Origin: an uncultured archaeon
GTDB lineage: Archaea > Micrarchaeota > Micrarchaeia > Micrarchaeales > CABMGC01
DNA length: 64,000 nt
Assembly: GCA_963752955.1 (NCBI GenBank)
Contig: CAVWAD010000007.1
Location: 64,386-128,385 of the forward strand
Direction of reading: 5' to 3'
The position numbers and the translations under genes were made by a program. The notes below the pieces were generated by a model. It was not told where the DNA came from. It did not search any database and saw only the letters and a list, made by a program, of their open reading frames with translations. Shown here one piece after another: positions 34,363 through 34,495 of this stretch (positions within the stretch are counted from its first letter, which is position 1; each line of letters opens with the position of its first letter).

Positions 34363-34495
34363 CCATGCTCGTGGCACTATCGGACTCAGGCAGACTGGCT
34401 TACCCGCGAGCGGGATTACAGTTGCGGCACAGCAGTGGAGTTTCACCACTTTCCCCTGACTTTAGCTGGTTCTGAACCCAGCTGTCCACAGATAC
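34363..34495 (-). promoter_or_regulatory. cobalamin (B12) riboswitch-like aptamer, short (class-II-like) form
   Basis: The minus strand reads ..CAGCUGGGUUCAGAACCAGCUAAAGUCAGGGGAAAGUGGUGAAACUCCACUGCUGUGCCGCAACUGUAAUCCCGCUCGCGGGUAAGCCAGUCUGCCUGAGUCCGAUAGUGCCAC... It contains the conserved GGGAA / GGUGAAA.UCC / GCUGU.CCGCAACUGUAA core and a B12-box-like AGCCAG....CCUG. It lies about 100 nt upstream of ATG 34259. Confidence 0.65.

Follow-up and report, generated by a model that had tools for sequence, protein, structure and literature searches.

Riboswitches are rare in Archaea, where surveys list few classes, whereas in Bacteria few classes are as abundant as the cobalamin riboswitch. An RNA of the cobalamin type in an archaeal contig therefore raises the question of whether it is a working regulatory element of its host, or the product of chance, misassembly or decay. 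This question is posed by a 64,000-nt stretch of DNA from an uncultured archaeon (contig CAVWAD010000007.1, positions 64,386 to 128,385 of the forward strand; hereafter the window, with positions counted from its first letter), on the minus strand of which a cobalamin-riboswitch-like element had been predicted, upstream of a gene for a protein with a B12-binding domain (the product has a J-domain as well, and the gene is here called the B12/J-domain gene). The aptamer lies in the 5' leader of, and is co-oriented with, this B12-use gene, and it is likely that it forms part of a functional corrinoid-responsive riboswitch in an archaeon related to the Micrarchaeota.

Scanning the whole window by cmscan against the 4,227 families of Rfam 15 gave two matches above gathering, one to tRNA-Gln (35288-35360, -) and the other to the Cobalamin family RF00174 at 34369-34501 (-), with 33.5 bits against a gathering threshold of 31.5 and an E-value of 8.7e-5. 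The covariance search thus bears out the original prediction, though the case for RF00174 from the window sequence alone is positive but borderline. Model positions 1-189 are all matched, with the 61-nt P6 extension of the model replaced by 6 nt, which agrees with the claim that a large peripheral extension is absent. The aptamer core that had been quoted, GGGGAAAGUGGUGAAACUCCACUGCUGUGCCGCAACUGUAA, is found at 34456-34416 (-), and the B12-box-like element is likewise present as AGCCAGUCUGCCUG at 34400-34387 (-). The RF00174 helices can be assigned as P1 (34488-34484/34385-34381), P2 (GCUGG/CCAGC, 34482-34478/34469-34465), P3 (34457-34455/34390-34388), P4 (AGUGG/CCACU, 34450-34446/34438-34434), P5 (34431-34430/34424-34423, with the loop L5, UGCCG, at 34429-34425) and a short P6 hairpin of 4 bp and a tetraloop (34414-34411/34406-34403), all on the minus strand. 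P2 and P4 had been named correctly, whereas P6 is to be read as CCCG-CUCG-CGGG and not, as was proposed, as CCCGC-UCG-GCGGG. Between 34456 and 34387 all parts of the consensus core are present, i.e. GGGAA in J3/4, GGUGNAANUCC in L4, GCUG...CCGCAACUGUAA, and AGCCAG...CC in the B12 box, and the RF00174 core nucleotides are invariant in all seven archaeal sequences described below. The spacing from GCUG to CCGC is 1 nt below the Rfam consensus, a variant that is shared by at least 120 bacterial examples. At the level of sequence, the RNA thus agrees with RF00174 in every feature by which the family is recognised, and it belongs to the short-P6 subgroup, which is common in Bacteria.

A borderline score in a single genome gains or loses weight with what is found in relatives. 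Orthologues of aIF2-gamma, which is encoded 4.3 kb from the aptamer, were fetched with 10-kb flanks, and the contigs of five representatives of the B12/J-domain family were examined as well. Two close relatives, L122 (a 651-kb JGI contig) and L123 (a 352-kb ENA contig), share with the window the order glutamine synthetase, B12/J-domain gene, tRNA-Gln, M50 peptidase, CDC48, S6e and aIF2-gamma, and the contig of a third relative has, from its annotation, the same gene order. RF00174 is matched at the homologous place in L122 (39.8 bits) and L123 (36.8 bits), as well as directly upstream of, and co-oriented with, the family gene in L129 (43.0 bits), L132 (41.4 bits), L130 (40.2 bits) and L131 (37.4 bits). 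The aptamer therefore stands upstream of a B12/J-domain family gene in seven of nine family loci, which come from at least five samples (JGI, ENA and Logan assemblies). As a control, three more distant Micrarchaeota loci that have the backbone synteny and lack the gene gave no cobalamin match in 63.6 kb. Inside the window's clade the aptamer is 94% identical, and 74-86% identical to the distant loci, compared to 65-70% for the leader; between the window and L122, the regulated protein has kept only 35% identity, compared to 90% for aIF2-gamma. The aptamer is thus kept in a clade, and not in this genome alone.

The substitutions that did occur in the aptamer are either compensatory or fall at positions that are variable in the Rfam consensus. 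Pairs were counted on the seven-sequence archaeal alignment for the Rfam helices together with P13 and the kissing loop (both introduced below), and standard pairs occupy 98.4% of the cells, compared to 24-40% when the partners are slid. Two-sided changes occur at six pairs in five helices, a result reached by none of 500 shuffles, the compensatory changes being C-G to U-A in P1, U-A to C-G in P2, A-U to G-C in P3, U-A to C-G in P4, and two pairs in P6.

The setting of the aptamer is archaeal, as had been supposed. Among the proteins encoded in the window are pelota, an intein-bearing topoisomerase VI-B, aIF2-gamma and CDC48. The aIF2-gamma has its nearest named relatives in metagenome-assembled genomes (MAGs) of Candidatus Micrarchaeota (65-77% identity), with unnamed relatives at 88-90%; the host is taken to be an archaeon related to the Micrarchaeota (DPANN), which the NCBI lineage places in the DPANN kingdom Nanobdellati. 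The promoter is of the archaeal kind too: the TATA-like box that had been noticed upstream is TTATAAGC at 34511-34518 (-), and it would serve as the promoter of the riboswitch transcript. In six of the seven loci TTATAA begins 30-31 nt before the GGAC of P1 (the exception, L129, has TATATA at 24 nt), and in a three-way alignment of close relatives TTATAAGC is invariant, with the DNA further upstream being unalignable. From this spacing, transcription would start at about 34490, a few nt before P1. A scan for sigma-70 promoters and intrinsic terminators gave nothing meaningful, as expected for an archaeon.

The assembly itself carries homopolymer indel errors, by which CDC48 (36147-38415, +) is broken over at least five frames. 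Compared to a public ENA contig of the same locus, the window differs at two homopolymers only (G5/G6 at 34127 and C2/C3 at 33522). Each of the two versions interrupts the B12/J-domain gene at a different place, while the riboswitch region is identical in both. With the in-frame state at both homopolymers, a single open reading frame (ORF) of 1,048 aa runs from the ATG at 34259, and the regulated gene can be reconstructed at 31114-34259 (-) after correction of G5 to G6 near 34127. The 1-nt homopolymer slip through which the frame had been followed is therefore present in the window, but it is a sequencing error (G5/G6, ~34127) and not biology.

Directly after P1, the RNA is predicted to form one more hairpin, P13 (34363-34374, -), with the stem CCA/UGG and the loop L13, CGAGCA (34371-34366), as the kissing partner of L5. 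The motif CACGAGCAUGG (34373-34363, -), which includes P13, is invariant in seven of seven archaeal loci and lies a few nt after P1. With the A bulged out, L13, read as CG(A)GCA, can pair at every base with the UGCCG of L5, again in seven of seven. The last base of this loop and the 3' arm together spell an AUG (AUG1, 34366-34364). The lower coordinate that had been given for the element, 34363, coincides exactly with the end of P13, although what had been described as the element has to be extended, in that the functional unit reaches 3' to the AUG-bearing P13.

Support for the kissing loop comes from Bacteria. With the same core pattern at least 120 bacterial riboswitches, mostly with a short P6, were listed from GTDB genomes, 38 of which were scored. 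These bacterial relatives have a hairpin loop CGNGNN after the B12 box, and in 30 of the 38 cases L5 and L13 are cognate, i.e. the last two loop bases complement the two variable bases of L5 (permutation p <= 1e-4). An L5 with CC goes with GG in L13 (6 of 6), UC with GA (17 of 22) and UG with CA (7 of 10). The archaeal L13 starts 22-26 nt past the B12 box, which is inside the bacterial range. The L5-L13 interaction is described in PMC6158498 as the regulatory switch known for the cobalamin riboswitch class. What differs is the 3' arm of P13, which in the bacterial cases is Shine-Dalgarno-like in 25 of 38 and holds a start codon in only one of 38.

The fate of AUG1 divides the archaeal loci in two. 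In L129, L131 and L132 the main ORF begins with the P13 AUG, at a distance of 3-5 nt from the aptamer. The same AUG gives rise, in the window, L130, L122 and L123, to a mini-ORF of 3-12 codons (AUG GAU AGA UGA, i.e. three codons and a stop, at 34355-34366, -, in the window), and a second AUG, 8-10 nt on (8 nt in the window), opens a predicted leader ORF of 26-33 codons. In the window this leader ORF, from AUG2, has 32 codons (MKTTSLVIRT..., 34260-34358, -) and ends in a UGA (34262-34260) that abuts the main start. In all four of these loci the leader stop abuts or overlaps the main start (as UGA|AUG, UGAUG, AUGA and UGA|AUG). The ATG at 34259 from which the gene had been read is indeed present and is preceded by a Shine-Dalgarno-like AGGUGA (34264-34269, -), of which the GGUG is, like the ATG, invariant in the three-way alignment; however, it is reached via the leader ORF. 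The leader peptides begin with M-x-T-x-x-L-[VIF]-[IL], like the N-terminus of the L132 protein, and this likeness suggests that an ancestral N-terminus has been turned into a separate, translationally coupled leader ORF. Sequestration of the Shine-Dalgarno in the leader was considered as the relay and set aside, since the predictions are inconsistent (probability unpaired 0.17-0.64).

Following these results, a mechanism can be proposed in which a TATA-box promoter would start the transcript a few nt before P1, and the RNA would fold into the four-way junction of P3-P6 together with P1 and P2, with the short P6 hairpin replacing the large extension. P13 would form directly after P1, its loop CG(A)GCA pairing with the UGCCG of L5 as a kissing loop, and a bound corrinoid would, by analogy with the bacterial members, stabilise the L5-L13 contact. 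The AUG made up of the last P13 loop nucleotide and the 3' arm sits where bacteria usually carry the Shine-Dalgarno, so that ligand binding would hide the start codon and turn translation off. Indeed, because the AUG lies in P13, switching off is the most likely effect of B12 on translation. In L129, L131 and L132 the hidden AUG would be the start of the regulated gene itself. In the window's clade, where AUG1 opens the three-codon mini-ORF, the signal would probably be relayed by translational coupling through the 32-codon leader ORF. What the sequences show directly is that the aptamer belongs to the family, is conserved and covaries, that the host is archaeal, that the promoter spacing is kept, that L5 and L13 are cognate, how the ORFs are laid out and that the protein has a B12-binding domain. 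Inferred from this are the binding of a ligand, the OFF polarity, an effect on translation, the relay through the leader ORF and the role of the protein, and the specific translational mechanism is put forward with less confidence than the riboswitch itself, especially for the window's clade.

Several observations weigh against a functional riboswitch of this kind. The score in the window is only 2 bits over the RF00174 gathering threshold, and minimum free energy (MFE) folding is unremarkable for the aptamer alone (z = -1.1) and uninformative for aptamer plus leader (z = +0.1), an unremarkable z being usual for RNA whose architecture relies on tertiary contacts. The alignment comprises only seven sequences, all of them related, which also served as the source of part of the structure that was tested on them. 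Among the archaeal sequences neither P13 nor the kissing loop varies, so that they are supported by bacterial covariation plus this invariance and not by archaeal covariation, and the P13 stem has only three base pairs. Two family loci have no RF00174 match, namely L133 and L124, the latter being the one new locus of two metagenome loci that were retrieved with a five-sequence alignment of the family. A Shine-Dalgarno of its own, ~100 nt from P13, precedes the main ORF in the window's clade, and control of this ORF by the switch, the strength of which is itself deduced, may be weak or may proceed by other means. Finally, the whole reading has its basis in sequence, from which corrinoid binding, the 5' end of the transcript and the regulation are predicted. 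It could even be held that the element is an artefact, i.e. a chance match of the covariance model or a piece of bacterial DNA joined to an archaeal contig by mistake, for which the borderline window score (33.5 versus 31.5 bits), the lower GC of the 30-36 kb segment (53-56% versus ~60%) and the error-prone assembly might be cited. This is scarcely credible, however, given the seven matches, each at the homologous place, from samples and assemblies that are independent (JGI, ENA and Logan, including the 651-kb contig), archaeal genes on both sides of the matches in conserved synteny, the fixed spacing of an archaeal TATA box, helix covariation, clean negative controls and the lack of att-like repeats. 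Chance and chimerism can be regarded as excluded, since the synteny is replicated, the helices covary and the controls are clean; contig chimerism, which the original prediction had offered as one of its two outcomes, is contradicted by the same arrangement in independent assemblies with archaeal genes on both sides. Its other outcome, a bacterial-type RNA behind an archaeal promoter, is the one that the evidence favours, with the qualification that horizontal acquisition of the riboswitch is no more than plausible. An integrated island is not supported: att-like repeats or a tRNA-Gln duplication, looked for as marks of such an island, were not found, and the region varies around a gene and riboswitch that stay constant.

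It is very unlikely, too, that the RNA is a decaying relic of horizontal transfer, or a sensor of something other than a corrinoid, with the main gene unregulated in the window's clade. That the P13 AUG opens an ORF of only 3-12 codons in this clade, and that two family members lost the riboswitch or never had it, would fit such decay, but an aptamer that is 94% identical next to a leader at 65-70% and a protein at 35% does not, nor do substitutions that are compensatory or confined to Rfam-variable positions, a stop-start junction kept in four of four loci, and the retention of all cobalamin consensus core nucleotides. A less remote, though still improbable, alternative is that a working aptamer controls transcription or the stability of the mRNA instead, through premature termination or nuclease exposure of the leader. 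The leader of ~100 nt and the independent Shine-Dalgarno between P13 and the main ORF in the window's clade leave space for it, sequestration of this Shine-Dalgarno is not consistently predicted, and bacterial cobalamin riboswitches also use termination and RNA decay (PMC6158498). Against this, no conserved oligo-T tract or terminator-like hairpin is found past the aptamer, the AUG-bearing P13 is the only invariant 3' element, and in three loci the gene starts so close to the aptamer (3-5 nt) that a terminator could not fit in between. A riboswitch that occludes a start codon is therefore the reading retained here.

The protein under its presumed control begins with helical repeats of ~35 residues and a B12-binding domain (with DEHDLG). 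A long, disordered linker of low complexity and a hydrophobic segment come next, followed by a J-domain and a helical region at the C-terminus. The possibility that the gene is an orphan was raised by word-index searches with the whole protein and with its N-terminal part, which returned only its own ENA calls, and was dropped once HMMER and synteny had found homologues. Exhaustive HMMER searching gave ~45 family cluster representatives (clusters at 50% identity) with 23-34% identity over the N-terminal 350 residues, forming an uncharacterised, fast-evolving family in Micrarchaeota-related genomes (P0123-P0170), in which H-D-x-G and GG are invariant, with GFS(L/M) coming after the H-D-x-G. Searched against the PDB, the family profile matches the B12 domains of adenosylcobalamin-dependent mutases, i.e. 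2yxb (E 5.9e-23), the HCM small subunit (2.6e-21) and MCM (4e-17), with MetH being weaker. By itself, the window protein stays below the cutoff for PF02310 (24.1 versus 32.1 bits), which its relatives pass in precomputed annotation. An AlphaFold model of residues 1-390 (pLDDT 82, pTM 0.79) was compared with the folds of the PDB and retrieved cobalamin-binding proteins only, of which a mutase B12 domain gave the best local superposition (3.1 Å over 128 columns); the same search gave no full-length match for the helical repeat region, and no catalytic domain was found. The DxHxxG cobalamin-binding module that had been recognised in the product is thereby confirmed (profile E 5.9e-23, and fold matches that are all cobalamin-binding domains), and profile and model agree in identifying the domain as a mutase-type, base-off/His-on cobalamin-binding domain of the PF02310 type, which has the signature DxHxxG ... 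SxL ... GG on a Rossmann-like fold. The protein as a whole would then be a non-enzymatic B12-binding J-domain protein.

A role for it in corrinoid salvage or handling, switched off at high B12, may be suggested. A PduO-type cob(I)alamin adenosyltransferase is encoded directly downstream in L123 (625-1224, -; 120.5 bits versus a cutoff of 108.45) and in one further contig, and its presence in two relatives fits such a role. As separate observations, genes for SOUL haem-binding and TspO/MBR proteins, i.e. tetrapyrrole-related neighbours, lie upstream of the regulated gene in L122 (4890-6261, -), and in the window an exact 16-nt repeat, with copies 18 nt apart (33017-33050), duplicates the residues 'LVNRSY' just past the B12-binding domain.

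How the archaeal RNA relates to the known forms of the class is best seen from the short-P6 bacterial members of RF00174 (clan CL00101). With these it shares the core (GGGAA, GGUGNAANUCC, GCUG..CCGCAACUGUAA and AAGCCAG..GCC), the helices P1-P6 and a P13 loop CGNGNN that pairs with L5, and the matches listed include dozens from Bacteria in which the core is spaced identically and the P6 hairpin has 10-40 nt. It differs from them in its archaeal host and TATA-box promoter, in the start codon that takes the place of the Shine-Dalgarno in the 3' arm of P13 and, in one archaeal clade, in the leader ORF between switch and gene. The class I (adenosylcobalamin, AdoCbl) riboswitches differ by their large P6 extension (P7-P11), for which the archaeal RNA has a 4-bp hairpin with a tetraloop. 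With class II (env8 Cbl-IIa; the AdoCbl-variant families of Rfam) it has in common the lack of this extension and the L5-L13 switch (known for class II from PMC6158498), whereas it keeps the P2 hairpin between P1 and P3, and RF00174 outscores the variant families of the clan. The J1/3 T-loop, which in env8 docks on J6/3 and tunes selectivity, was not identified in the archaeal RNA, and L6, the partner of L4 in a loop-loop contact of class II, differs between the seven archaeal loci in both length and sequence. The supposed resemblance to a short class-II form thus lies in the missing extension; with P2 retained and no T-loop identified, the RNA, which is not class I, can be called 'class II' only loosely. 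As class-II members range from AdoCbl-selective to methylcobalamin (MeCbl)-selective, the corrinoid form that is sensed cannot be inferred from this resemblance.

The matches of the core pattern listed from GTDB (at least 120) are all bacterial, a listing that says nothing on absence from Archaea, and the closest architecture among them is that of a Saccharibacteria type from the candidate phyla radiation (CPR; L009, L013, L055, L100, L108 and L115). This type shares the UGCCG of L5, CG(A/C)GCA in L13 and a short spacing from the B12 box to L13 (18-23 nt versus 22-26 nt in the archaea), and L108 shares in addition the P2 loop UCAGA and has the highest identity (75%) among the matches listed. 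The 3' arm of P13 is different, being a GGAG Shine-Dalgarno in the Saccharibacteria type. A shared cassette was considered and rejected, in that the proteins downstream are unrelated to the archaeal B12/J-domain family, and a donor was not to be had from identity, the top bacterial matches all lying at an uninformative 70-75%. The RNA therefore hints at a link between CPR bacteria and DPANN archaea, which is to be taken as a lead only. Independently of this, the short-P6 riboswitches of the Saccharibacteria type (L009, L013, L034, L055, L100, L108 and L115) precede Pfam-less proteins of 290-520 aa, whose related subfamilies form an uncharacterised B12-regulated group.

The surveys agree with what had been assumed, namely that the cobalamin riboswitch is not established as a feature of archaeal genomes. 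McCown et al. (2017) list TPP (thiamine pyrophosphate), fluoride, FMN (flavin mononucleotide), Mg2+-I and guanidine-II for Archaea, with cobalamin absent; it is absent also from the archaeal classes of Gupta & Swati (2019), as far as these are summarised in the citing literature, and reviews of 2021 and 2024 name fluoride as the only class validated experimentally in Archaea. No published report of cobalamin riboswitches in Archaea was found, though unreported Rfam database matches in archaeal MAGs may exist, and full-text literature searches for riboswitch with Micrarchaeota, or with DPANN and cobalamin, gave nothing relevant. The riboswitches reported earlier in Archaea (TPP and fluoride; occasionally FMN, Mg2+-I, guanidine-II, lysine and c-di-AMP) are likewise of a bacterial-type class, sporadic in an archaeal lineage and presumably acting on translation, and differ in their ligand classes. 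On its sequence features, then, the RNA is a known riboswitch class in a domain where this class is undescribed.

If this is true, a major class joins the archaeal riboswitch repertoire, together with a natural case of a bacterial-type expression platform adapting to archaeal initiation, by start-codon occlusion and a leader-ORF relay. The RNA is ~130 nt long and its candidate ligands are commercially available, which makes it directly testable, and it may become a ligand-inducible tool for archaeal genetics. DPANN archaea are thought to depend on their hosts for cofactors, and because of this the B12/J-domain family is a lead on how DPANN symbionts acquire or handle corrinoids. A more far-reaching picture, offered tentatively and with somewhat less than even confidence, is that of a first cobalamin-class lineage native to Archaea, which would have been selected in a DPANN clade, driven from a TATA box and equipped with a start-codon-sequestering kissing loop and, in a sub-clade, a leader-ORF relay, with a so far undescribed B12/J-domain family as its target, possibly capturing or chaperoning host corrinoids, and a CPR-like RNA hinting at exchange between two groups of ultra-small episymbionts.

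Some further features of the region can be recorded. Two VapBC-like toxin-antitoxin pairs (30401-31035, -, and 34643-35260, +), each a PIN-domain protein with a small partner, flank the unit of riboswitch and gene, and L130 shares the first of them. At 47946-49355 (-) an insertion sequence (IS) is represented by a DDE-type transposase ORF (PF01609), and L123 has IS elements at a nearby syntenic position. The intein of topoisomerase VI-B (42994-46770, +) is recognised by matches to an intein N-terminal splicing region and to Hint-type domains, and the protein is intein-free, with 530-548 aa, in the relatives L122 and L126-L128. Finally, protein P0086 is an aIF2-gamma, hence an archaeal marker, yet bears the NCBI label 'Candidatus Saccharimonadales bacterium', and its source is probably a Micrarchaeota contig that was mis-binned into a CPR MAG.

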